From the NCBI GenBank assembly GCA_030390025.1, contig CM059430.1, forward strand, positions 75,578,001 to 75,642,000: a stretch of 64,000 bases of DNA, read 5' to 3'. The notes under the pieces are model-generated. The model searched no databases. It saw only the letters and a list, made by a program, of their open reading frames with translations, and had not been told where the DNA came from. Positions within the stretch are counted from its first letter, which is position 1; every line of letters begins with the position of its first letter. The position numbers and the translations under genes were made by a program. Below are positions 1 to 64,000 of the stretch, piece after piece. This DNA comes from Squalus acanthias (Eukaryota).

Positions 1-631
1 GAGACAGGATGTGTTGCTATAGTTTGTTCGTTCAACTCGTGCAAAATCAGCTGCACAATAAAATATTTCAGAAACTTCAGATTAAAAACCCAAGCTTGGC
101 GTCAGAATGTTATTGTTTTCCTATTCATCTCCCCTTCTTTTCACACTTGGCGCTGCCCTACTCTCTAGCCTTATATTTCATTTGAGAACATCGGTATCTG
201 CTGACAACACTCCAAACTCATCTCCCTGAGAAGTGTTCGTTTTTCAAATCGTGTAAATATCAAAGATCTCAATAAAGAGATCCGGACGGTGAGACACTGA
301 TCTCCTCCCACCCTCCACCCCATGTCCCACGGGGACTATAGATTTGTCTAAGTTCTGGAAACATTTCGTTCATGTATCCATATACTAAACAATGCGCTGT
401 ATTGTGAGCGAGATTACCAGGCTGTCAGGGATGTTTAATATACGTTGCACTACACAAACAGGCAAGATAAGTTAGATGGATGTAACTTGATATTCAGCAA
501 ATTCTAGGGCATCAAGATTTTTATGGGCTGCTGCTCATTAGCTAATCCTATCTGCCGACCAGGGAATCAGCAAAAAATGTGGCTGAGAGTAATGAAGTTG
601 CAAATACTCAATAATGGGTCATATATATTAT

Positions 632-1327
632 GGACCTGAAATTGCGGTTGGAGGCTTCCCACGGGTGAATACCTTTGAATTGCAAGAAGTTGTGTGACAC
701 AAAATCCATACTTACCTGATGGCCCAGGACCTACGAAGTCTGGCGCTCCTGGGCCTGCAGGCGTACGCCTGCATAAAGGCCCATGTATTCCGTTGGCGCA
801 TGCGGTTCGGAACCGTTCCTGGGATCACGTGGGCCGGCCCAACCAATCAAGAACGGGGATTTCCATCATGGGTCTGATGATTCCATTTAAGTGCAGAATC
901 CCCATACGCTCAATAGGATTCACATAAAAAATAAATTATCACACAACCTAAAACTGCAATTTATTTAAACATTTAAGACAAAAATGTATTTTTTGAAAAT
1001 AAATTTAAGCATTTTTAAAGGGCCAAAAATAACCTAAATTAATGTTAAAGGTTTTTTAATGTTTAAATAATTTTTAAAAATGTATTTGAATATTTATTTA
1101 AACCCTTACGCTGGTAAAAGAATGCCTTATGCCTGCTTTTACGAGGCGTAAGTTTCATGGGCATTTGCTGGACAGTAGTTGGGCAAATAGTTCAACATTG
1201 TGCCAGCGAATGTCCATTTCCTTTAGATTCATATGATCTGTCAAGCTGAAACTTGACAAGTTCCGGGTTTTCATGCATGAGCACTTAAGCAGCGGGCTGT
1301 AGATAACGCCAGGACAAATTAAATCCC
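632..1327. mobile_element. Harbinger-type MITE / non-autonomous DNA transposon
   Basis: Starts ggacctgaaattgcgg; GC-rich arm, AT-rich core; its left part is the reverse complement of the element at 4885-5401. Right end approximate. Confidence 0.55.
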
Positions 1328-1521
1328 TTAAAAATCCGGAGTGAGATAAAACGGGCTGTAGATACACTCTCGGCCAGAATCACATTGAGACACTGAAATC
1401 AAAAAGAAAGGAGGATAAAGGCATGGTAATGTAGAAACAAATATTTTTCAAGCATGAAAACATTAAACATAGGTCAGCACTTCTTATTGTGTTTCATCAA
1501 ACTATACCTCAACTGTAAAAC

Positions 1522-1830
1522 GGGCAGCATGGTGGCATAGTGGTTAGCACTGTTTCCACAGAGCGCCAGGGACCCGGGTCCGAATCCGGCCTCGGAGTGA
1601 CTAGCTGTGTGGAATTTGCACATTCTCTGCGTGGGTATCCTCCGGGTGCTCCGGTTTCCTCCCACAGTCCAAAGATGTGCGGGTTAGGTTGACTTGGCTA
1701 TGATAAATTGACCCTTAGTGTTAGGGGGGGATTAAATACGTGGGGTAACGGGGACAGGTTGGGATGTGCGTCGGTACAGGCTCGATTGGCCGAAATGGCC
1801 TCTATCTGCACTGTGTGAATTCTGTTCTGT
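1522..1830 (+). mobile_element. tRNA-derived V-SINE (HE1-like)
   Basis: A box tggcatagtgg (1533), B box ggtccgaatcc (1577), V-domain-like core (gcgtgggt..cctccgggtgctccggtttcctcccacagtccaaagatgtgc), short ttctg tail. Absent from the paralogous site at ~53250. Confidence 0.85.
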
Positions 1831-1927
1831 GAAAATCACTAAAATAGCAACAATTAATTACAAAATTTCTGATCTTTTAGGCAACGATCTTGTTGAAATG
1901 TGCGTCATATTTATACATTTCATCTAA

Positions 1928-2047
1928 ATCTTGTTGGTGGTGAGATCACCCATTGCTTGCTGATTTCTGTATGTGCAGGGGGCGGGTCGATTTTCCTGGT
2001 GTTGGTTCTCATCATTCGGAATCGATGTCACTTAAAGAAAATTAACG
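1928..2047 (+). pseudogene. Orphan TM exon of the V-C1 receptor family (DLVGGEITHCLLISVCAGGGSIFLVLVLIIRNRCHLKKING)
   Basis: Homologous to the TM exons at 15129, 43854 and 53355; donor g|gtaaat intact. The expected acceptor reads catctAA, and the upstream AG at 1879-1880 is out of frame. Confidence 0.8.
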
Positions 2048-2054
2048 GTAAATT

Positions 2055-2801
2055 GGCCCAAAATTTGCGGTCGGTGTGACGGTGAACTGGCAGTGTTCAC
2101 CGTCATTCCGCTTTTGAAACTGACCGCAACTTCTGGGTTTGGCACGTGCGCAGGCGGAAATCCCAAAGTTGCGGTCAGTCATTGACACCTCTGTCACAGG
2201 CTACGCTCTGCCCACCCCCTCAACAGAGCCAGTAATCCATGTAATCAGCCAAATCAGGGCTCATCCGCAGTAAGCACCCTAATAATTTCCCCACTAAAAG
2301 TTAGACTCAATGGGATTAGGTGCAATTGGGGTTTTGACTGCATTATTGTTGCTAAACAAATGTTAAGTGCCACGAAAACTAGTTTTCATTTTGTGTAGTA
2401 TAAAATTATTCCATTTTAATAAAAATGAAAGTTTAAAGAAAATTTTCAAAAATTGACTTTTAAAGTTTCTCCATCTTGATTTTAGGTTTTCAATTCACCA
2501 TCTGAGAGCCCCAATCTTTGTATTCCTCCCTCTAAATATTTTTTAAAAATCAGAGTTTTTAAGCGCTTACTCACTTCCTTGTTCGCGGTCTGAGAATTCT
2601 GCGTTTTGATTGGCTGCTCAGAAAGCTAGTTGACGTCACAGCAGTTCCCACAAGGGGAACCCCACTACAGAGCACTCATTTGAATTGCACGATGGGAAAC
2701 TCGAAGTTCTCGACACAAGAATTGGCAATATCCTTTTGCGAAACGCACTTCGGGGCCAGCAGCAAATGCCTTCACTTCGCTGCTGACCACAAATTCGGGG
2801 A
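2055..2801. mobile_element. Harbinger-type MITE inserted just after the TM-exon donor
   Basis: Imperfect TIRs ggcccaaaatttgcggtc ... gaccacaaattcgggga, flanked by ATT on both sides. Confidence 0.7.
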
Positions 2802-4032
2802 ATTATTTAGTATTTCTACTAAAATAAGCACAACTTTCAAAACGGGAGCTGGCCTTCCGGTTTCATGTGGAGAGAAAGTTAGGTGATTGTAAATGAACGG
2901 GTTTTCATCCTGAATTATTTCAAATGTAAGGATATACATAAGAGTATTTTATACATAATTGGCCCCGTTTTATTCTGTCGCTCTGAAGATACATAGAGAA
3001 ATAGTGAAAAGTGAGAGCAGCACTTACACAACACACACATGGAAACATTTTTTCAATATCTGTGAGTGTAGGTCAGAGGCATCCGAATTACAAGTCACCT
3101 GTGGATTTTGAAACAAGGTGTTGATTAAAAGATACCATCAGCTGCAATGAATAGTAAAACAAATCTGCTTTTATTTCTTGGACCCAGCGTATGTTGCGAC
3201 CCATTAACTGACTCTAACTAAACTAACTAACTAAATCCGGAAAACGCGAGTGGACATCCAACAACGACAATTTGAGAATTTGAATTCAGTTTAATAAAAC
3301 ATGTAAACAATAAGTTGGTATTATTAAAAGTAACCACAAAGCTGTCGGATTGGCGTAAATCCCAACTGGTTCACAATAAATGTTGGCCTTGCCAGCGATG
3401 TTTGCATCCCGAGAATGAATTAGAAACAGGACAGAAGTCAAAGGCTGGCCGTGCCAGTGTGCGCCACTCACAGATATCTTTTTTTTTTATTATGCAGCGG
3501 TTGAACTCGAAAAAAGGCGTCATATCGGCGTACCCTTCAGTTTCCTCATTTACCCATCAAAGCATCCAACTGAACTTGGACAACCCCAATGTCTTTGCCT
3601 CCAACTCCTTGGTCGGAATATGCTGCTTCGCCGCAGCAGCCAGACGACCGAGCAACCATGCAGAAGCTTATCAGAAAATTGTAGGTTATAATGCTCAATT
3701 TCACAAAGAACCTAAATGGTTTTGTCACTTTTTGCTGCAGCAAAAGTGTAACTTCAAGTATACAAACCTCGCCAGTTGCAGGTTATTTCCCCAGACTAAT
3801 CCTACCAGTGGACTACAAGAATGAACTATCATCCCTTATTTTTGAGTTAATTGGTCTGATTCTGCCAGTTGGGCACTGAAGGTGTTGGCATGTTATGGCG
3901 GCCAGGAGGCTGTGGGCACCTAGTGACTGAATTAGCTTCCAACAATTCAATGGATTGATTTTCGACCCACGTTTCTCATGCCAGCTTGCATTGTTCTGTG
4001 CAGGCTGCACCCAAACACGGTGTCTGTCCTAG

Positions 4033-4590
4033 CATAGAATTATAGAATCATACAGCACAGACGGAGACGATTCGTTCCATCGCTTCTGTGCTGGATCTTT
4101 GGAAAAGCTATCCAATTGCTTCCACTCACCTGCTCTTTCCCCATATCCCTGCAAATTTCTCCTTTTCGAATATATACAATTAACTTTTTAAAGGTAGTAT
4201 TGAATCTGCATCCACCACATTTCAGGTAGTGCAGTCCAGATTATAACAAATCGCTGGATATTTGACAATTACCTTTAATCTATGTCCTCTAGTTACTGAC
4301 TCCACTGCCAGTGGAAACAGTTTATTCTGATCTACACTATCAAAACCCTAATTATGAACACCTCTATTATATCTCCCATTAACCTTTTCTGCTATAAGGA
4401 GAATAATCTGACTTTCACTCATCTCTCCAGATAACTGAAGTCCTTCATCCCTGGCAACCATTCTGGTGAATCTCCTCTGCACCCTCTCCAAGGCCTTGAC
4501 ATTCTACCTCAAATGTGCTGCGTAAAATTGGCAACAATACTTCAGCTGACGCCTAAGCCGTGATTGAAAAAGGTTCAGCATAACTTTATT
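4033..4590 (-). mobile_element. CR1 LINE 3' fragment
   Basis: catagaat tail and similarity to the 3' ends of the other CR1 copies in the window. Confidence 0.75.
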
Positions 4591-4884
4591 CCTTCTGTAC
4601 ACTATGACCGGAATTTTCCCGTTGCTGAGCGTGAGGGTTTGGGGGCGGATCAGCAGTTAAACTCACGGAAATTGACAGCTTCTCGGGAACCCGCCGTCAT
4701 CCCGTCGACTTCTGCATTTAAATTGGGTGCGTTTGGAGGTGCGCCACGGACTCGCTTGGGAGAGGCGGGCGTTCGCATTCAAGTTCTTAAATGCTTGCTG
4801 AGAGACTCTTTATATGCAACCGGATTGCTAGTCCATTTTTCAGAGAAGTGCTCCAGAATTTGTTACACATGGCGCTATGACTTC

Positions 4885-51706: not shown

Positions 51707-54700
51707 GAAACAGGATTTGTTGCTATAGTTTGGTTCCTTCAGTTCATGCAAGATCAGCTGCACAATAAAATATTTCAGAAACTTCAGATTAAAAACCTAA
51801 GCTTGGCGTCAGGAGGTTATTGTTTTCCTATTCATCTCCCCTTCTTTATACATTTGGCGCTGCCCTGCTCTCTGGCCTTACCTTTCATTTGAGAACATCG
51901 GTATCTGCTGACAACACTCCAAACTCATCTCACTGAGAAGTGCAAGTTTTCCAAAACGTGTAAATATCAAAGATCTCAATAAAGAGATCCGGGCGGTGAG
52001 AAACTGATCTCTCCCCACCCTCCACCCCCTGTCCCACGTGGGCTATAGATTTGTCTAAGTTCTGGAGACATGTCGTTCATGTATCCATATACTAACCAAT
52101 GAGCAGTATTGTGAGCGAGATTACCAGACTCTCAGGGATGTTTAATTTCCGTTGCACTATACAAACAGGCAAGATTAGTTCGATGGATGTAATTTGATAT
52201 TCAACAGATTGTAGGGCATCAAGATTTCTGTGGCCTGCCGCTCATTAATCAATCCTAACTGCCGAACAGGGAATAAGAAAGAATGTGGCTGAGAGTAATG
52301 AAGTTGCAAATACTCAATAATGGGTCATATGTATTGTGGACCTGAAATTACGGTGGGAGGCTTCCCACGGGTGAATACCTCTGAACTGCAAGAAGTTGTG
52401 TGACACAAAATCCATACTTACCTGATGGCCCCCGGACATACGAAGACTGGCGCTCCTGGGCCTGCAAGAGTACGCCTGCGTAAAGGCCCATGTATCCCGG
52501 TTGTGCATGCGGTTCGGAACCGTTCTAGGTATCACGTGGGCCGGCCCGACCAATCAAGAACGGGGTTTCCATTATGCTTATGTTGATTCCATTTACGTAC
52601 GGAATCCCCATAAGCACAATAGGAATCACGTAAAAATTACATTTTCACACAACCTAAGTAAAACTAAATTTTCACTCGTTTAAAATTAATTAAAATTCAA
52701 TTTATTTAAACATATAAAACTTTTTTTTTAAATAAATGCAATATTTTATAGCGGCCGAAAATAACCGAAACAAATATTAAACGTTTTTTAATGTTTAAAT
52801 GATTTTTAAAATGTTATTTTAATATTTATTTAAACATGTACACTGGTAAAATAACGAAGAATGCCTGCTTTTACGAGGCGTAAGAGTTTCATGGGCATTT
52901 GTTGGGCAGTAGTGGGGCAAATAGTCCAATATTGTGCCAGCGAATGTCCATTTCCTTCAGATTCATACGATCTGTCAAGCTGAAACTTGACAAGTTCCGG
53001 GTTTTCATGCATGCGCGGTTAACCAGTGGCCTGTAGATAACGCCAGGACAAATTTCATCCCTTAATAATCCGAAGTGAGATAAACCGGGCTTTCGATACA
53101 CTATCGGACAAAATCACAATTAGCCACTGAAATCAACAAGAAAGCAGGATAAAGGCACGGTAATGTAGAAACACATTTTTCAAGCATGAAAACATTAAAC
53201 AAAGGTCAGCACTTTTTAATTTGTTTCTTCAAACTATACCTTAAATGTAAAAGCACTAAAAAAGCAACAATGAATTAAAATGTATCTGATCTTTTAGGTC
53301 ACGATCTTGTTGAAATGTGCAGTGTACTGCCGCATATTTATACATTTCATCTAAATATTGTAAGTGCCGAGATCACCCGTTACTTGCTGATTTCTGCATG
53401 TGCAGGGGGCGGGTCGATTTTACTGGTGTTGGCTCTCATCATTGGGAGGCGATGTCACTTAAGGAAAAATAAAGATAAATTGGCCCAAAGTATGCCGTCG
53501 GTATGATGGTGAACTGGCAGTGTTCGCCGTCATTCCGCCTTTAAAACTGACCGCAACTTCTGGATTTGGCACGTGCGCAGGCGGAAATACCGAAGTTGCG
53601 GTCAGTCATTGACAGCTCCCACACAGGCTACGCTGTGCCCACCCCCTCAACAGACCCAGCAATCCTTTTTTTCAGCCAAATCAGGGAAATTCATAAAAAG
53701 TTCGGCTCTTCTGCAGTAACTATGCTCTTAATTTCCCACTGAAAGTTAAACCCAATGGGATTAGGTGAAACTGGGGTTTTGACTGCATTATTACTGCTAA
53801 ACAAATGTTAAAGGACACTAAAACTAGTTTTCATTTTGTATAATATGAAATTATTCCATTTTAATATAAAATGAAAGCTTAAAAATATTTCAAAAATTGT
53901 TTTGTAAAGTTTCTCCATCTTTATTTCAGGTTTTCAATTCACCATCTGAGAGCCCCAATCTTTGTTTTCCTCCCTCTAACTATTTTTTTAAAGTTAGAAT
54001 TTTAAGAGCTTACTCACTTCCTTCTTCGCTGTCTGAGAATTATGTGTTTTCATTGGCTGCTCAGACAGCTAGTAGACCTTACAGCATTTCGCACAAGGGG
54101 AACCCCACTACAGTTCATTGATTTTAATTGCACGATGGGAACCTCGAAGTTCTCGACACATGGATTGCAATATCCTTGTGTGAAGCGTATTCGGGGCCAG
54201 CAGCGAATGCCTTCACTTCACTGCTGACCACAAATTAAGGAATTATTTATTATTTCTACTAAAGTAAGCACACATTTCAAAACTGGAGCTGGAACTTCCC
54301 TTTTCCATGTAGAGAGAAAGTTAGGTGATTGTAAATGAACATGTTTTCATCCTAAATTATTTCAAATGTAAGGATATACATAAGAGCATTTTCATCTATT
54401 AAATGCCATAATTGGCCCCATTTTACTCTGTCGCTCTAAAGATACATACAGAATTAGTGCAGAGTGAGTGCAGCACTTACACAACACACACATGGAAACA
54501 TTTTTCAATATCTGTGACAGTCGGTCAGAGGCATCCGAATCACAAGTCACCTGTGGATTGTGAAACAAGGTGTTGTTTAAAAGATACCATCAGCTGCAGT
54601 GAATAGTAAAAAGAAATCTGCTTTAACCTGTTGGACCCAGCGTATGTTGCGACCTCATAGCAACGTAGTCTATAATTCTGTACCCATTAACTGACACTAA

Positions 54701-56405
54701 CTAAACTAACTAAATCTAGAAAACGCGAGTTGATATCCCACAACCCCAATTGAGAATTTCAATTCAGTTTAATAAAACATGTAAACAAAAAGCTGGTATT
54801 AGTAAAAGTAACAACAAAGCTGTCGGATTGGCTTAAAACCCAACTGGTTCACGAATGTCCTTTGTGGTAGTAAACCTGCCGTCCGTACCCGGTTTGGACT
54901 ATATGTGACTCCAATCCCATACAATCTTGGTCGACTCTGAACTTCCCACTGAAGTATCCTTTCAAGCGATGGGCAATAAATGTTGGTCTTGTCAACGATG
55001 TCCGCATCCCGAGAATGAAGAAGAAACACACAGAAATTCATGGCTGGCCTTACAAGTATACGCCAGTGTGCGCCACTCACAGATACCTTTTATTTATTAT
55101 GCAGCGGTTGAACACGAAAAACGGCGAGAAATCGGCATACCCTTCAGTTCCCTCATTTACGCATCATAGCATCCAACTGAACTTGGACAACCCCAATGTC
55201 TTTGCCTCCAGCTCCTTGGTCGGAATATGCTGCTTCGCCGCAGCAGCCGGACGACCGAGCAACCATGGAGAAGCTTACCGGAAAATTGCAGGTTATAATG
55301 CTTAATTTCACAAAGAACATAAATGCTTTTGTCACTTTTTGCTGCAGCACGTATATAAACCTTGCCAGTTGCAGGTTATTACCTCAGATTAGTCCTACCA
55401 GTGGAACGACAAGAATGAACTATCTTCCCTTATATTTGAGTTAATTGGACTGATTCTGCCAGTAGGGCACTGAAGGTGTTGGTATGTTCTGCCGGCCGGG
55501 AGGCTGTGGGCCCGTAGTGACTGAATTTGCTTCCAATAATTCAATGAATAGACGTTCGACCCACGATTCTCTAGCGAGCTGGCATCGTTCTGTTCAGGCA
55601 GCAGCGAAACACGGTATCTGTCCTAGCATAGAATTATAGAATCATACAGCATAGACGAAGCCTATTCGGTCCATCGCGTCTGTGCTGGATCTTTGGAAAA
55701 GCTTTCCAATTGCATCCACTCACCTGCTCTTTCCCCATATCCCTGCAAATTTTTCCTTTTCGAATATATCCAATTAACTTTTTAAAGATAGTATTGAATC
55801 TGCTCAACCACCATTTCAGGTAGTGCATTCCAGATTATAACAAATCGCTGGAGTTTTGCCTTTTATCTTAAATCTATGGCCTCTATTTACTGATCACACT
55901 GCCAGTGGTAACAGTTTATTCTGATCTACTCTATTAAAACCCCACATAATTATGAACACCTCTATTCCATCTCCCATTAACCTTTTCTGTTATAAGGAGA
56001 ACAAACTGACTTTCTCTCATCTCTCCACATAACTGAAGTCCCTCAACCCTGGTACCATTCTGGTGAATATCCTCTGCACCCTCTCCAAGGTCTTGACATC
56101 CTACCTAAAATTTGGTGCGCAAAATTGGCTACAATACTCCAGCTGAGGCCTAACCATTGATTCATAAAGGTTCAGCATATCTTTCTTCCTTCTGTACACT
56201 ATGGCCGGAATTTTCCGTTGCTGAGCGTGAGGGTTTGGGGGCGGATCGGCAGTTAAACTCACGGAAATTGACAGCGTGTTGGCAACCCACCATCATCCCG
56301 TTGACTTCTGCATTTAACTTGGGTGCATTTGGAGATGCACCACGCAACCGCTCGGGAGAGGCGTGCGACCTCATTCAAGTACTTAAATGCTTGACGAGGG
56401 ACCCT
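51707..56405 (+). repeat. Segmental duplication, copy 2
   Basis: Colinear with 1-4810. Confidence 0.95.
53298..53506 (+). CDS. Orphan TM exon, open as a terminal exon (GHDLVEM..YLLISACAGGGSILLVLALIIGRRCHLRKNKDKLAQSMPSV*)
   Basis: cttttag acceptor at 53297 is phase-1 in frame; the donor has been lost (aaag|AT), so the frame runs to TGA at 53504-53506. Confidence 0.6.
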
Positions 56406-56835
56406 TAAGTGGGTTTTTACCAGCAGCTTCTGGCTTTATCTTCAAGAGCATGGGTTTCATGCAACTCTGGAACCTCGCTTGTGAAGAGGAGGCGGAAGCT
56501 CACTAGCCATTGTGCGAGTCCATTAATTGACAGCTGGGAAAATCACATTGCAAATGATTACTGGACAAATGGAAAGGATCTCGCTGACTCCATTTTGTGC
56601 AGAGATTTTGCTGTCAGCAGTTTGCAGGTCATTTCTGCAACCTCGGAATCCACTCCCACCACATTGCTAGTCACTAACATTGAGGGATTGGGCATCTGAT
56701 CTTCGCTTTAATGGCCATCTATTACATCAGCATGGGTGCCACTTATGCTTTCACACCTTGGACCTCAGAATCGAACCGAGATGAGCCCCAGCACCAACAA
56801 CACCAGCCACACCAGCAGCAGCAACAATCACAACA

Positions 56836-57132
56836 GGCGGCGGACCTGGGTGGAGCGGCAGCGGCGAGGCGGAGCTGAGAAAAGGCGGCGGCGACCAGGT
56901 AGGCCCACAGAGGTGGCGGACCTGGGTGGAGCGGCTGCGGCGAGGCGGAGCTGAGAAAAGGCAGCGGCGACCAGGTAGGCCCACAGAGGCGGCGGACCTG
57001 GGTGGAGTGGCTGCGGCGAGGCGGAGCTGAGAAAAGGCGGCGGCGACCAGGTAGGCCCACAGAGGCGGCGGACCTGGGTGGAGCAGCTGCGGCGAGGCGG
57101 AGCTGAGAAAAGGCGGCGGCGACCAGGTAGGC
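56836..57132 (+). repeat. 76-bp GC-rich tandem monomers (~3.9 copies) forming the CR1 5' end
   Basis: Units start at 56836, 56912, 56988 and 57064. Confidence 0.95.
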
Positions 57133-57403
57133 TTACCAATCTTCGCCCCCAGAGTGGGAGAGAGAGAAGTAGAAAATAATCAAATTGTGACGTCACCAGA
57201 AACCAGGTAAGTGATTGGTTGGTGAGTATTTCTCTTTTTCTCCTTTTTTCCATACTCAAATTCTGTGGTTTATAGTTTCTAGCGTCTCTGTGGTGTAGCG
57301 GGGACTGCTGTTAAGCAAGGGCCCTTGAGTATTTCATTTAGTTGAAGTGAAATTGGTGGGATTCAATTAGTTGAATTTTAATTAATTAATTAAAGGGTAA
57401 GTC

Positions 57404-58354
57404 ATGGCAGCAGAGCTCGGCGCCGTGATATGCTCCTCCTGCAATATGTGGGAAATCAGGGACACTTCCTGTGTCCCTGACGACCATGTGTGTGGGAAAT
57501 GTATCCAGCTGCAGCTACTGATGGACCGCATTGCGGCGCTGGAGCTGCGGCTGGATGCATATTGGAGCATTCGCGACGCTGAGAACGTCGTGAATAACAC
57601 ATTTAGCGAGTTGGTCACACCGCAGGTAAAGGATGTACAGACAGGAAGTGAATGGGTGACCACCAGGCAGAGTAAGAGGTGCAGGCAGGTAGTGCAGGGG
57701 TCCCCTGTGGCCATTCCCCTCTCAAACAGATATACCACTTTGGATGCTGTTGGGGGGGATGACTTATCAGGGGAAGGCGGCAGCAGCCAACTTCCTGGCA
57801 CCATGGGTGGCTCTGCTGCACAGGCTGGCAGGAAAAAGTGTGGAAGAGCTATAGTGATAGGGGATTCAATTGTAAGGGGAATAGATAGGCGTTTCTGCAG
57901 CCGCAATCGAGACTCCAGGATGGTGTGTTGCCTCCCTGGTGCAAGGGTCAAGGATGTCTCGGAGCAGCAACAGAACACTTTGGAGGGAGAGGGCGAACAG
58001 CCAGTTGTCGTGGTGCACATAGGCATCAACGATATAGCTAAAAAACGGGATGAGGTCCTAAAAGCAGAATATAGGGAGTTAGGAGGTAAATTAAAAAAGA
58101 GGACCTCAAAGGTAGTAATCTCAGGATTGCTACCAGTGCCACGTGCTAGTCAGAGTAGAAATAGGAGGATATTTCAAATGAATACGTGGCTAGAAGAATG
58201 GTGCAAGGGGGAGGGATTCAAATTCCTTGGACATTGGAACCGGTTCTGGGGGAGGTGGGACCAGTACAAACGGGACGGTCTGCACCTGGGCAGGGCCGGG
58301 ACCGATGTCCTAGGGGAAGTGTTTGCTAGTGCTGTTGGGGAGGGTTTAAACTAA
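57404..58354 (+). CDS. CR1 ORF1p: zinc finger / leucine zipper + SGNH (GDSL) esterase, intact 316 aa
   Basis: CSSC..CGKC, heptad leucines, IGDSIVR, CLPGAR, HIGIND, DGLHL. Confidence 0.92.
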   Translation: MAAELGAVICSSCNMWEIRDTSCVPDDHVCGKCIQLQLLMDRIAALELRLDAYWSIRDAENVVNNTFSELVTPQVKDVQTGSEWVTTRQSKRCRQVVQGSPVAIPLSNRYTTLDAVGGDDLSGEGGSSQLPGTMGGSAAQAGRKKCGRAIVIGDSIVRGIDRRFCSRNRDSRMVCCLPGARVKDVSEQQQNTLEGEGEQPVVVVHIGINDIAKKRDEVLKAEYRELGGKLKKRTSKVVISGLLPVPRASQSRNRRIFQMNTWLEEWCKGEGFKFLGHWNRFWGRWDQYKRDGLHLGRAGTDVLGEVFASAVGEGLN

Positions 58355-58357
58355 AGT

Positions 58358-61338
58358 GGCAGGGGGTTGGGAACCTGAGCAGGGAGACAGAGGAAAGGGA
58401 AATAAGGATAAAAGCTAAAGACAGGATGGAGAAAAACAAAAGTAGAAGGCAAAGAACTCAACGGTTTAAATCAAACATGGTCACAGTAAATAATAATTCA
58501 TATAGGTCTGAGAGCGTTAAAAAACAAGCCTGAAGGCCTGGTGTCTTAATGCAAGGAGCATTCGGAACAAGGTGGATGAATTAGCTGCGCAAATAGAGGT
58601 AAATGAATACGATTTGATTGGGATTACAGAAACATGGCTCCAGGGTGGGCAAGGCTGGGAACTCAACATCCAGGGTTATTCAATATTTAGGAAAGATAGG
58701 CAAAAAAGAAAGGGAGGTGGGGTAGCATTGCTGGTTAAAGAGGGGATTAACACAATTGAAAGGAAGGATATTAGCTCTGATGATGTGGAATCTGTATGGG
58801 TAGAACTGAGAAATAACAAGGGGCAGAAAACGTTAGTGGGAGTGGTATATAGACCTCCAAACAGTAATACGGAGGTTGGGGACAGCATTAAAAGATAAAT
58901 TAGAGAAGCATGCAGTAAGGGCACAGCAGTCATCATGGGTGACTTTAATTTACATATAGATTGGGCTAACCAAACTAGTTAAAATACTGTGGAGGAGGAA
59001 TTCCTAGAATGTTTACGAGACGGTTTTCTGGAACAATATGTCGAGGAACCAACCAGAAATCAGGCCATCTTCGACTGGGTATTATGCAATGAGAAAGGAT
59101 TAATTAGCAATCTTGTTGTACGAGGCCCCTTGGGTCAGAGTGATCATAATATGATGGAATTCTTCATTAGGATGGAGAGTGAAGTAGTTGAATCAGAGAC
59201 TAGGGTCCTGAATTTAAATAAAGGAAACTACGATGGTATGAGGCGCGAATTGGGAAGGATTGATTGGGGAATGTCACTCAAGGGGTTGACGGTGGATAGG
59301 CAATGGCAAACATTCAAAGACTGCAAGGATGAACTACAGAATTTGTACATCCCAGTGTGGCATAAGAATAAAACAAAAAGGGTGACTCAACCGTGGCTAA
59401 CAAGGGACATTAGGGATAGCATAAGATCCAAGGAGAGGGCAATTAAATTGGCCAGAAAAAGCGGTAGCCTTGAGGATTGGGAGCAGTTTAGGATTCAACA
59501 AAGGAGGACAAAGGGATTAATTAAAAAGGGGAAAATAGAATATGAAAGTAAGCTTGCTGGGAACATAAAAACTGACTGTAAGAGCTTTTATAGATATGTG
59601 AAGAGAAAAACATTAGTGAAATCAAGTGTAGGTCCCTTGCAGTCAGAAGCGGGGGAAGTTATAATGAGGAACAAAGAAATGGCAGCCCAATTAAATGCAT
59701 ATTTTGGTTCTGTCTTCACAAAGGAGGACACAAATAACCTCCCAGAGATGTTGGAGAACATACGGTCTGATGAAAGGGAGGAACTGAAAGAAATCAGTAT
59801 TTGCAGGGAAATGGTGTTAGGGAAATTGACGGTATTGAAGGCCGATAAATCCCCAGGGCCTGATAATCTACATCCTAGGGTACTTAAGGAAGAAGCCCTA
59901 GAAATAGTAGATGCATTGCTGATCATCTTCCAACATTCGATGGAATCTGGAACTGTATCCATGGATTGGAGTGTAGCTAATGTTACCCCACTATTCAAAA
60001 AGGGTGTTAGAGAGAAAGCGGGGAATTACAGACCGGTAAGCCTGACATCGGTAGTGGGGAAAATGCTAGAGTCCATTATAAAGGATGTAATAGCTGAGCA
60101 TTTGAAAAACAGTGACAGGATCGGACAAAGTCAACATGGATTTACAAAAGGTAAATCGTGCTTGACTAATCTACTGGAATTTTTTGAGGATGTAACTGGA
60201 AAAATAGATAACGGAGAACCAGTAGATGTGGTGTATTTGGACTTTCAAAAGGCTTTCGATAAGTTCCCGCATAAGAGATTAGCGGGTAAAGTTAAGGCAC
60301 ATGGGATTGTGGGCAAGGTATTGACTTGGATAGAGAACTGGTTGGCGGACAGAAAGCAAAGAGTAGGAATTAATGGGTCTTTTTCTGAGTGGCAAGCAGT
60401 GACTAGTGGGGCACCGCAGGGATCGGTCCTTCGACCCCAGCTATTCACAATATATATTAATGATCTAGATAAGGGAATTAAATGTAATATCTCCAAGTTT
60501 GCAGATGACACAAAGCTGGGTGGGAGTGTGTGCAGCGAGGAGGATAGCGAGAAACTCCAGGATGATCTGGACAGGTTGGGTGAGTGGGCAGAAGCGTGGC
60601 AGATGCAATATAACGTGGATAAGTGCGAGGTTATCCACTTTGGTGTCAATGGCAGAAGGGCAGACTGTTATCTGAATGGCAATAGATTGGGAGGGGGGGG
60701 GGTGCGGCGAGGCCTGGGTGTCCTTGTGCACCAGTCGCTGAGGGTGGGCATGCGGGTGCAGCAGGCGGTGGAGAGGGCGGGTCGTATGTTGGCCTTCATA
60801 GCGAAAGGGTTTTGAGTGTAGGAACAGGGATGTCCTGCTGCAGTTGTACAGGGCCTTGGTGAGACCACACCTTGAGTACTGTCTGCAGTTTTGGTCGCCT
60901 TATCTGAGGAAGGATGTTCTTGCCATGGAGGGAGTTCAGCGAAGATTCACAAGGCTGAAACCTGGGATGGCAGGAATGACATATGAGGAGAGATTGGGTC
61001 GATTGGGCTTATACTCACTGGAGTATAGAAGAATGAGAGGGGATCTCATCGAAACATATAACATTCTGACAGGTCTGGACAAACTAGATGCAGGAAGAAT
61101 GTTCCCGATGGTCGGAGAGTCCAGAACCAGGGGTCATAATCTACGGATAACGGGTAAACCATTTAGGACAGAAATGAGGAAGAATTTCTTCACCCAGAGA
61201 GTAGTGAACCTGTGGAATTCTCTACCACAGAAGGTAGTTGAGGCGAAGTCATTAAATATATTCAAGGATGAGTTAGATATATTTCTTAAAGCTAAAGGTA
61301 TCAAGGGTTATGGGGAGAAGGCAGGTACAGGGTACTGA
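58358..61338 (+). pseudogene. CR1 ORF2 (APE endonuclease + reverse transcriptase) with a few stops/frameshifts
   Basis: [29 protein letters not shown] and FADD motifs; stop at 58896, frameshift near 60813; start approximate. Confidence 0.92.
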
Positions 61339-61931
61339 GTTTAGATGATCAGCCATGATCTCATCGAATGGCGGAGCAGGCTCGAGGGGCCGAATGGCCT
61401 ACTCCTGCTCCTATCTTCTATGTTAACATTCTCCTCACCGAACTGAGGCTCAGGCAATCGCGCCATATCGAAGCAGACATCTGCAGCTTGCTGGAGCTTC
61501 GCCTGCTGCCCAGAGGACCTGGTGGACAGATCTTACCAGTGGCTGTCAAAGTCACCACCGCCCGCAACGTCTTCGCCTCAGGCTCCTTCCAGGGATATGC
61601 AGCAGACATTTGGAGGATCTCGCAGTCGGCCACCCACAGATGTATCACCCAGGTGAATGATGGCATGTTCGAAAGTCAGCCAATTATATCGACTTTGCCA
61701 CTGATGGAGCCAGTGTTACTGAGCGGGCGCTCTGCTTTGCGACTCTGGAAGGCTTCAAACAGGGGGAGGGCATCATCGATTGCACACATGTTGCCATCAG
61801 GGCAACCCATCATCACCCACGATTGCTTGTGAACCACAAGGGCTTCCACTCCCTCAAAGTGCAGCTAGTCTACAACCATAAAAAGATCATCATGCATGTG
61901 TGCGCCAGATTCCCTGGCAGATTTCATGATT

Positions 61932-64000
61932 ACATAGAAATATAGAAACATAGAAAATAGGTGCAGGAGTAGACCATTCGGTCCTTCGAGCCTGCACCGC
62001 CATTCAATGCGTTCATGGCTGAACATGCTACCTCAGTACCTCATTCCTGCTTTCTCGCCATACCCCTGATCCCCTTAGTTGTGAGTATTATATCTAACTC
62101 CCTTTTGAATATATTTAGCGAACTGGCCTCAACAACCTTCTGTGGTAGAGAATTCCACAGATTCACCACTCTCTGGGTGAAGAAGTTCCTCCTCATCTCA
62201 GTCTTAAATGGCTTCCCCTTTATCCTTGGACTGTGATCCCTGGTTTTAGTTTTCCCTAACATTGGAAACATTCTGCCCGCATCTAATTTGTCTAAACCAG
62301 TCAGGATTTTAAACGTCTCTATAAGATCCCCCCTCATTCTTCTGAACTCCAGAGGATACAAGTTCAGTGGATCCAGTCTTTCTTGATATGTCAGTCTGGC
62401 CATCCCAGGAATCAATCTAGTGAATCTTCGTTGCACTCCCTCAATAGCAATAATGTCCTTCCTCAAGTTAGGAGACCAAAACTGCACACAATACTCCAGG
62501 TGTGGCCTCACCAAGGCCCTGTACAACTGTAGCATCACCTCCCTACTCCTGTACTCAAATCCCCTTGCTATGAAGGCCATCATGCCATTTGCTTTCTTGA
62601 CTGCCTGCAGCACTTGCCTTCCCACCTTCAGTGACTGATGTACCATGACGCCCAGGTCTCGTTGCACCTCCCCTTTCCCTAATCTGCCACCATTCAGGTA
62701 ATAGTCTGCCTCCCTATTTTTACCACCAAAGTGGATAACCTCACATTTATCCACATTGTACTTCATCTGCCATACATTTGCCCATTCACCCAAACTGTCC
62801 AAGTCACTCTGTAGCCTCCTAGCATCCTCCTCAATGTTCACACTGCCTCCCAATTTAGTGTCATCCGCAAATTTGGATTATCACAATTAATCCCTTCGTC
62901 CAAATCATTTATATATAATGTAAACAGCTGGGGCCACAGCACCGAACCCTGCGGTACCCCGCTGGTCACTGTCTGCCATTCTGAAAAGTACCCATTTAAT
63001 TCTACTCTTTGTTTCCTGTGTGCCAACCAGTTCTCAATCCACGTCCACACATTACCCCCAATCCCATGTGCTTTAACTTTGCACACCAATCTCTTGTGTG
63101 GGACCTTGTCGAAGGCCTTCTGAAAGTCCAAATACACCACATCTACTGGTCCCCCCCCCCCCCGTCCACCCTATTGGAAACATCCTCAAAAAATTCCAGA
63201 AGATTTGTCAAGCATGATTTCCCTATCACAAATCCATGCTGACTTGGACCTATCATGCCGCCACTTTCCAAATGGTCTGTTATGACATCTTTAATAATTA
63301 ATTCCGTCATTTTACCCACCACCGATGTCAGGCTGACCGGTTTATAATTCCCTGCTTTCTCCCTCCCTCCTTTTTTAAAAAGAGGGGTTACATTAGCCAC
63401 CCTCCACTCCTTCGGAACTGATCCAGAGTCTAAGGAATGTTGGAAAATGATCGTCAATGCATCCACTATTTCCAAGGCCACCTCCTTAAGTACTCTGGGA
63501 TGCAGACCATCAGGCCCTGGAGATTTATCAGCCTTCAGTCCCATCAATTTCCCCAACACCTTTTCCCGACTGATAAGGATTTCCCTCAGCTCCTCCCTCT
63601 TACCAGATCCTTTGATCTCTTTTATTTCCGGAAGGTTGTTTGTGTCCTCCACAGTAAACACCGAACCAAAGTACTTGTTCAATTGATCTGCCATTTCTTT
63701 GTTCCCAATTATGACTTCACCTGTTTCTGACTGCAGGGGACCTACCTTTGTTTTTACTAACCACTTTCTTTTTACATATTAATAGAAGCCTTTGCATTCC
63801 GTTTTAATGTTCTCCGCAAGCTTCCTTTCATATTTTATTTTCCCTGCCCTAATCAAACCCTTCGTCCTCCTCTTCTGAGTTTTAAAGTTCTCCCAGTCCC
63901 CGGGTTTGCTGCTACTTCTGGCCAATTTGTATGCCACTTCCTTGCTTTTAATACTATCCCTGATTTCCCTTGTTAGCCATGGTTGAGCCACCTTCCCTTT
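61932..64000 (-). mobile_element. CR1 LINE, opposite orientation, running off the window end
   Basis: (catagaaa)n tail; RT ORFs at 62041-62853, 62838-63140 and 63143-63694. Confidence 0.95.

Follow-up and report, generated by a model that had tools for sequence, protein, structure and literature searches.

Dense A>G changes that pass through reverse transcription are known from avian retroviruses, in which near 50% A>G has been reported in LTR and inverted-repeat regions and ascribed to ADAR (PMC12925331). The accessible part of that paper cites earlier work for the U3 region of Rous-associated virus and an inverted repeat of avian leukosis virus (Felder 1994; Hajjar & Linial 1995). The A>G tracts that we describe here, from a CR1 LINE of Squalus acanthias, resemble those cases, as presented in the available text of PMC12925331, in being local and in having about half of their A's read as G after reverse transcription; the avian ones are linked to a duplex region, as ours may be. 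However, the avian examples are exogenous LTR retroviruses (PMC12925331), whereas ours are non-LTR elements, which spread by target-primed reverse transcription, and the tracts have become part of an assembled vertebrate genome in at least eight independent copies. For LINE copies in a genome, a literature search that took in few subscription papers found no published account of A>G tracts of the ADAR type.

APOBEC DNA editing of retroelements offers a second comparison (Knisbacher & Levanon, PMC4866542; Lindic et al., PMC3880073). In the accessible portions of both studies the signal consists, as in our case, of strand-biased clusters of a single change type in young copies, recognized by comparison with a subfamily consensus, while the mirror change serves as the control. 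The difference lies in the change itself, since APOBEC produces sense-strand G>A through deamination of the cDNA, whereas we observe sense-strand A>G in an ADAR context. According to the same portions, the first study screened LTR elements with a filter for G>A over A>G and found other mismatch types to be very rare, and the second reported G>A for the L1 elements of lizard and none for CR1. Hyper-editing of metazoan RNA (Porath et al., PMC5625713) likewise shows dense A>G clusters in repeats, with depletion of upstream G and a variable downstream preference, but as far as the available text goes, those are mismatches between RNA and DNA that are lost with the RNA, and the changes here are genomic. 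For human L1, the accessible text reports that L1 RNA remained unedited in cell culture with ADAR1 over the more than 2.5 kb checked (Orecchini et al., PMC5224506), and that restriction by ADAR1 and ADAR2 is independent of editing (PMC5224506; review, PMC8535693). ADAR meets LINE RNA or its ribonucleoprotein in both settings, but the edits in ours are heavy, and because human L1 RNA was unedited in culture we count that result (PMC5224506, in part) against an ADAR-editing reading. A trace-archive survey, in its accessible part, describes an A>G excess as absent from DNA traces (PMC2873906), and a review (PMC4982230) leaves a mutational role open.

The copy that we start from lies near the end of the window, by which we mean the whole 64,000-nucleotide stretch of DNA analysed. 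Its features are as follows.

About 56836..61424, + strand: full-length young CR1-type LINE, with relatives at 96-98% and about 1.5% off the family reference outside the tract
56835..57132, + strand: 5' UTR, GC-rich and built of tandem 76-bp units that show up as self-matches offset by 76 bp
57401..58354, + strand: ORF1, open, 317 aa stop to stop, GDSL-like esterase domain (PF13472, E 1.3e-12)
58521..61338, + strand: ORF2, endonuclease (PF03372, E 2.8e-7) and reverse transcriptase (PF00078, E 2.1e-30)
60650..60818, + strand: hypermutated tract with G in place of A at 22 of 52 A columns, directly 3' of the Pfam reverse transcriptase domain
60694..60781, + strand: tract core of highest density, G at 17 of 26 A columns
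60819..61424, + strand: spared 3' part with the end of ORF2, the 3' UTR and the octamer tail, a single A>G (60930) in 606 bases
61947..64000, running about 830 bases past the window, - strand: 5'-truncated CR1 copy in inverted orientation, from another subfamily and 77% identical, free of A>G and T>C clusters
61425..61920, other half at 56400-56834, no strand assigned: host repeat holding the CR1 insertion, DDE_Tnp_4 transposase remnant (PF13359, E 5.3e-9)

The reverse transcriptase match covers residues 344-552 of a 610-aa ORF2 piece, and the ORF2 frame is broken three times, by a stop near 58896, another near 58980 and an extra nucleotide at 60810. An esterase ORF1, an AP endonuclease with a reverse transcriptase in ORF2, and an octamer (microsatellite) 3' tail are features of the CR1 type; the element has no LTRs, and its relatives include 5'-truncated copies. 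Judged by its anatomy, it is probably a CR1-clade LINE, of CR1 rather than L2. The host repeat is one that we take to be Harbinger-type. The insertion has a possible 4-bp target duplication, and no second haplotype of it was found in the assembly search.

The sequence-only reading of this stretch had described a tract of about 185 bp with some 20 sense-strand A>G changes between ordinary flanks, and our comparison agrees closely. The reference was the commonest letter per column among close copies from the same genome, at first 29 and then 58 covering the tract, half of the 58 having been chosen for their likeness to it. Over the 169 columns of 60650-60818, the window copy departs from this reference 25 times. 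Of these changes 22 are A>G, and the rest are single A>T and G>C substitutions and one inserted nucleotide; none is G>A, and the two non-A>G substitutions are at the level of the flanks. Outside the tract (58500-61424), where the 2756 columns show 44 differences in all, G is found at 2 of 907 A columns (Fisher p 2.5e-28 versus the tract), and the 5' half of the element shows 33 scattered differences with no cluster. The polarity is from A to G, as 55-58 of the 58 copies carry A at most edited columns, the variable ones being three, with G at 60743 in 28 copies, at 60667 in 10 and at 60712 in 6. Re-translation gives the same GGGGVRRGLG...VERAG that had been read before, and over 60600-60809 there are 15 non-synonymous and 2 synonymous codon changes relative to a sister copy (L003). 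The hypermutated tract is thus confirmed as real in the assembled sequence.

A scan of other CR1 copies, also proposed by the sequence-only reading, was carried out as a motif search of the 3.7-Gb genome. Four A>G motifs, with G expected at 5-8 A positions, gave 20 matches at 19 loci, and three mirror motifs, with C expected at T positions, gave 12 matches. Seven distinct CR1 copies from several subfamilies proved to carry strong sense-strand A>G tracts, 253-2101 bases long.

L161, G000:C2:195.16 Mb, CR1 sense: 68 of 159 A columns edited, 539 bases
L162, C10:29.70 Mb (G000:C10:29.697 Mb), CR1 sense: 282 of 666 A columns, 2101 bases; found twice
L164, C17:29.57 Mb, CR1 sense: 77 of 288 A columns, 983 bases
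L183, C1:134.01 Mb, CR1 sense: 39 of 110 A columns
L184, C2:64.22 Mb, CR1 sense: 107 of 214 A columns
L187, C23:2.15 Mb, CR1 sense: 21 of 59 A columns
L198, C15:27.91 Mb, CR1 sense: 51 of 124 A columns

The remaining A>G-motif loci were weak or ambiguous (8) or without a reference at the motif (4). No T>C tract was present in the 12 mirror matches, three of which had no reference at the motif, and the best of them had 6 of 84 T's changed alongside 13 other changes; at paired sites the A>G and mirror searches stand at 6 versus 0 (two-sided binomial 0.03). A subfamily-specific motif pair near 60130-60190 gave one match outside the reference, four control matches and no mirror match.

Pooled over the seven tracts, 645 of 770 changes are A>G, with 15 T>C and 110 others, while A>T and A>C together account for 17; sense-strand G>A clusters of the APOBEC type were not found, there being 20 G>A in the pool. 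Editing varies strongly with the 5' neighbour, from T (170/268, 0.63) and A (219/388, 0.56) to C (86/278, 0.31) and G (78/437, 0.18), rates to be read with the fact that the search motifs themselves favour a 5' A/T context at up to six sites per copy. The depletion of 5' G is highly significant (p 4e-33), on the 3' side G may have a slight advantage (fractions edited 0.45 for G, 0.44 for A, 0.36 for C and 0.34 for T; p 0.027), and the top triplet is UAG, edited at 48 of 68 occurrences. Upstream G depletion is given as a conserved ADAR motif across Metazoa, with a downstream preference that varies by lineage, in the accessible part of Porath et al. (PMC5625713), which also records abundant A-to-I hyper-editing in elephant shark brain. 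The pooled tracts therefore match the footprint of ADAR hyper-editing, being near-pure A>G, restricted to the sense strand, and ordered 5' U>A>C>>G. Of the neighbour bias anticipated by the sequence-only reading, the 5' part holds in the seven other copies; the bias does not emerge from the window tract taken alone (5' G at 4/22 edited versus 10/29 unedited A's, p 0.22; 3' G, p 0.57), where 5' A/T against C/G points weakly in the same direction as the pool (p 0.048). Exons with an A_deamin domain (PF02137) occur at six loci of the genome, a family-level match that may represent ADAR1/2/3, ADAD or ADAT1.

Several other origins could be proposed for these tracts. If the window tract belonged to a G-rich CR1 subfamily, or had been converted from one, its letters would be inherited rather than edited, and three of the edited columns are indeed polymorphic among copies. 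This is ruled out, unless the donors are missing from the assembly, as none of the 58 copies shares more than 4 of the 22 tract G's and three tract motifs, unaltered and with 1-2 mismatches tolerated, match the window locus alone in 3.7 Gb. The best other match of the tract in the genome is 88%, and we consider the probability of such an origin negligible. The 16-mer just upstream of the tract has 32,951 exact genome matches (about 33,000 copies). Many copies with the same G alleles, which the sequence-only reading had named as the mark of a normal subfamily, were not found, nor was any daughter of the edited window copy. The edits of the window tract and of four tracts that overlap it fall on the same positions hardly more often than by chance (35/39/31/65, p 0.057), which argues against a shared subfamily and for independent events. 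A different concern is that the G's are absent from the animal's DNA, through base-calling error or leakage of edited-RNA reads into the assembly or its polishing. We compared Logan contigs from four runs (X1, X2, X6, X15) at 90% likeness, a level at which repeat copies swamp the signal, and among the contigs listed none crosses the tract. X1, of which about 55% was read, contains the 3' junction (61401-61558, no differences), none of its 32 listed pieces spans the tract, and 0.72 of sampled words are present, a value compatible with the tract being present or absent; in X2, the entire depth at 60818 is A, with repeat copies mixed in at 90% likeness. Against an artefact stands the recurrence of the same sense-only pattern and ADAR context, within element borders, in eight copies on seven contigs, and leaked pre-mRNA edits would be expected in both orientations and at loci with inverted partners, which is not what we see. 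We know of no base-calling error that gives such a neighbour context, and we hold an artefact to be very unlikely.

Polymerase error is a rival of another kind, in which the reverse transcriptase misincorporates C opposite A under unbalanced dNTP pools, or a WA-biased DNA polymerase of the Pol eta type acts on the sequence. Both errors yield A>G, and Pol eta prefers 5' A/T. However, the near absence of A>T and A>C, the change of up to 50% of A's over 2 kb with sharp on/off borders within one copy, and the complete U>A>C>G order with its UAG optimum all fit ADAR better, and a repair polymerase working on duplex DNA would not be expected to restrict itself to the sense strand, so that we give this explanation little credence. 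Finally, the change could have come after insertion, if a read-through transcript folded with the downstream inverted CR1, was edited, and converted the locus through cDNA, or if ADAR deaminated DNA in an RNA:DNA hybrid, an activity that ADARs show in vitro according to the available text of PMC12925331. The inverted copy 520 bases downstream does span the tract tail-to-tail at about 81% identity. It is itself young, and across its 2865 columns the A>G changes number 3 and the T>C changes 4, with no cluster, which makes it usable as a control, and within the stretch matching the tract it has a single A>T, so the partner arm is unedited. Identity between the window element and this neighbour is flat (0.73-0.85), without a peak at the tract, edited A's are independent of predicted pairing with it, and the seven other copies have no inverted partner spanning the tract within 3-10 kb (longest overlaps, 64-65 bases). 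An origin after insertion is accordingly highly improbable.

Editing of the CR1 RNA before integration, as the sequence-only reading had proposed, is instead supported by the exclusion of a subfamily and by the seven further sense-only tracts with the ADAR 5' order. The tracts are bounded by single copies, and no editing is seen in the other CR1 copies that share their 10-kb loci. All eight tracts end 30-769 bases 5' of the element's 3' end, and L162, edited over 2.1 kb, has none of its 11 tail A's changed; the motif positions made the search blind to tracts limited to the 3' end and sensitive to those running through it. Confinement to single copies, unedited neighbours, the lack of a spanning partner, and the spared 3' ends together favour RNA editing before insertion. 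We conclude that a host ADAR very probably edited CR1 RNA in germline cells before reverse transcription, and that eight copies carry the record. A CR1 transcript would pair with antisense CR1 sequence, most probably supplied by an inverted copy within the same source transcript, and for the window copy the resulting duplex would be about 170 bases long. ADAR would deaminate 27-50% of the duplex A's to inosine, target-primed reverse transcription would place C opposite inosine, and second-strand synthesis would fix G. The tails may have been spared because the 3' end is needed intact for priming. Alternatively, the reverse transcriptase may have moved to an edited RNA from the same subfamily and then returned.

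As to the duplex partner, the local inverted neighbour was considered and rejected, given its unedited arm and the missing identity peak. No hairpin within the window element was found that would explain the tract, and the tract borders differ between copies, which together point to a partner supplied by the source locus or by another RNA. The accessible part of a recent study describes editing as infrequent where cis-antisense transcripts form a duplex and as linked to structure within one molecule (PMC13445718), a result that, taken with that limit, favours an inverted copy within the same source transcript.

Edited copies appear to be rare. Among 87 close-copy loci no other tract was found (207 kb aligned, with some elements counted twice and a best-match bias), and none was found among 29 relatives of the inverted neighbour (79 kb), where a diverged copy came closest with 6 A>G of 10. 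Nor did 33 unselected 10-kb stretches, with 77 CR1 pieces, yield one. The best scanning intervals in the unselected stretches had sense A>G at 6/8 (two pieces) and sense T>C at 6/10 (one piece), and non-CR1 repeats there reached 9 C>T per interval. At one site there are three strong matches in about 33,000 copies; if the chance of detection is taken as 30-50%, this suggests about 2-3 per 10,000 copies per position, or very roughly one in several thousand. Such rarity constrains how far editing can be called a major defence.

We think it fairly likely that, in the germlines of vertebrates, ADAR repeatedly hyper-edits the RNA of transposing LINEs and so causes heritable mutations, a process that parallels APOBEC DNA editing but leaves A>G, and that screens filtered for G>A discard. 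Edited copies would then be fossils that can be dated, recording the specificity of germline ADAR and the duplexes of CR1 RNA, with selection for an unedited 3' end. If this is true, the copies would be direct evidence that edited LINE RNA can still be reverse transcribed and inherited, with up to 282 ADAR-type changes in one copy, that RNA edits can turn into DNA, and that, in a vertebrate other than a mammal, germline ADAR acts on RNA that is transposing. Assemblies alone suffice to screen for the signal. Repeat dating and subfamily calling can be distorted by it, because edited copies look 5-13% too old, and in the window copy the editing would load ORF2 with missense changes.

Some further features of the tracts deserve mention. 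In five of the seven copies (L161, L162, L183, L184, L187) the tract starts at most 17 bases from the 5' truncation point, which chance can explain because the tracts are long, or which may reflect reverse transcription ending preferentially in edited or paired RNA. Weaker A>G excesses appear in older or more distant subfamilies with a poor reference (in sense-oriented coordinates, L153 at 1370-1736, L189/L190/L191 at about 1300-1600, with 14 of 78 A's changed in L189, and L201 at 1300-1800), and these are possibly lightly edited or decayed tracts. A>G is also raised outside the main tract of L198, at 23 of 133 over 835-1277 (sense-oriented), which suggests a second, lighter edited segment.

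Background substitutions on the CR1 sense strand of the 87 loci are uneven as well, with G>A at 434 versus C>T at 255, G>T at 114 versus C>A at 63, and A>G at 183 versus T>C at 77, all being raw counts uncorrected for base composition. In the window, the two young CR1 copies of different subfamilies stand tail-to-tail with about 520 bases between them, the first inside the DDE_Tnp_4 remnant, and another multi-kb repeat is present in two copies of the same orientation, 85-87% identical (1-4810 and 51707-56406). ORF2 of the window element has no obvious start codon, and at the end of ORF1 (window 58340-58360) a slippery-type heptamer, T-T-T-A-A-A-C, lies immediately 5' of the stop.
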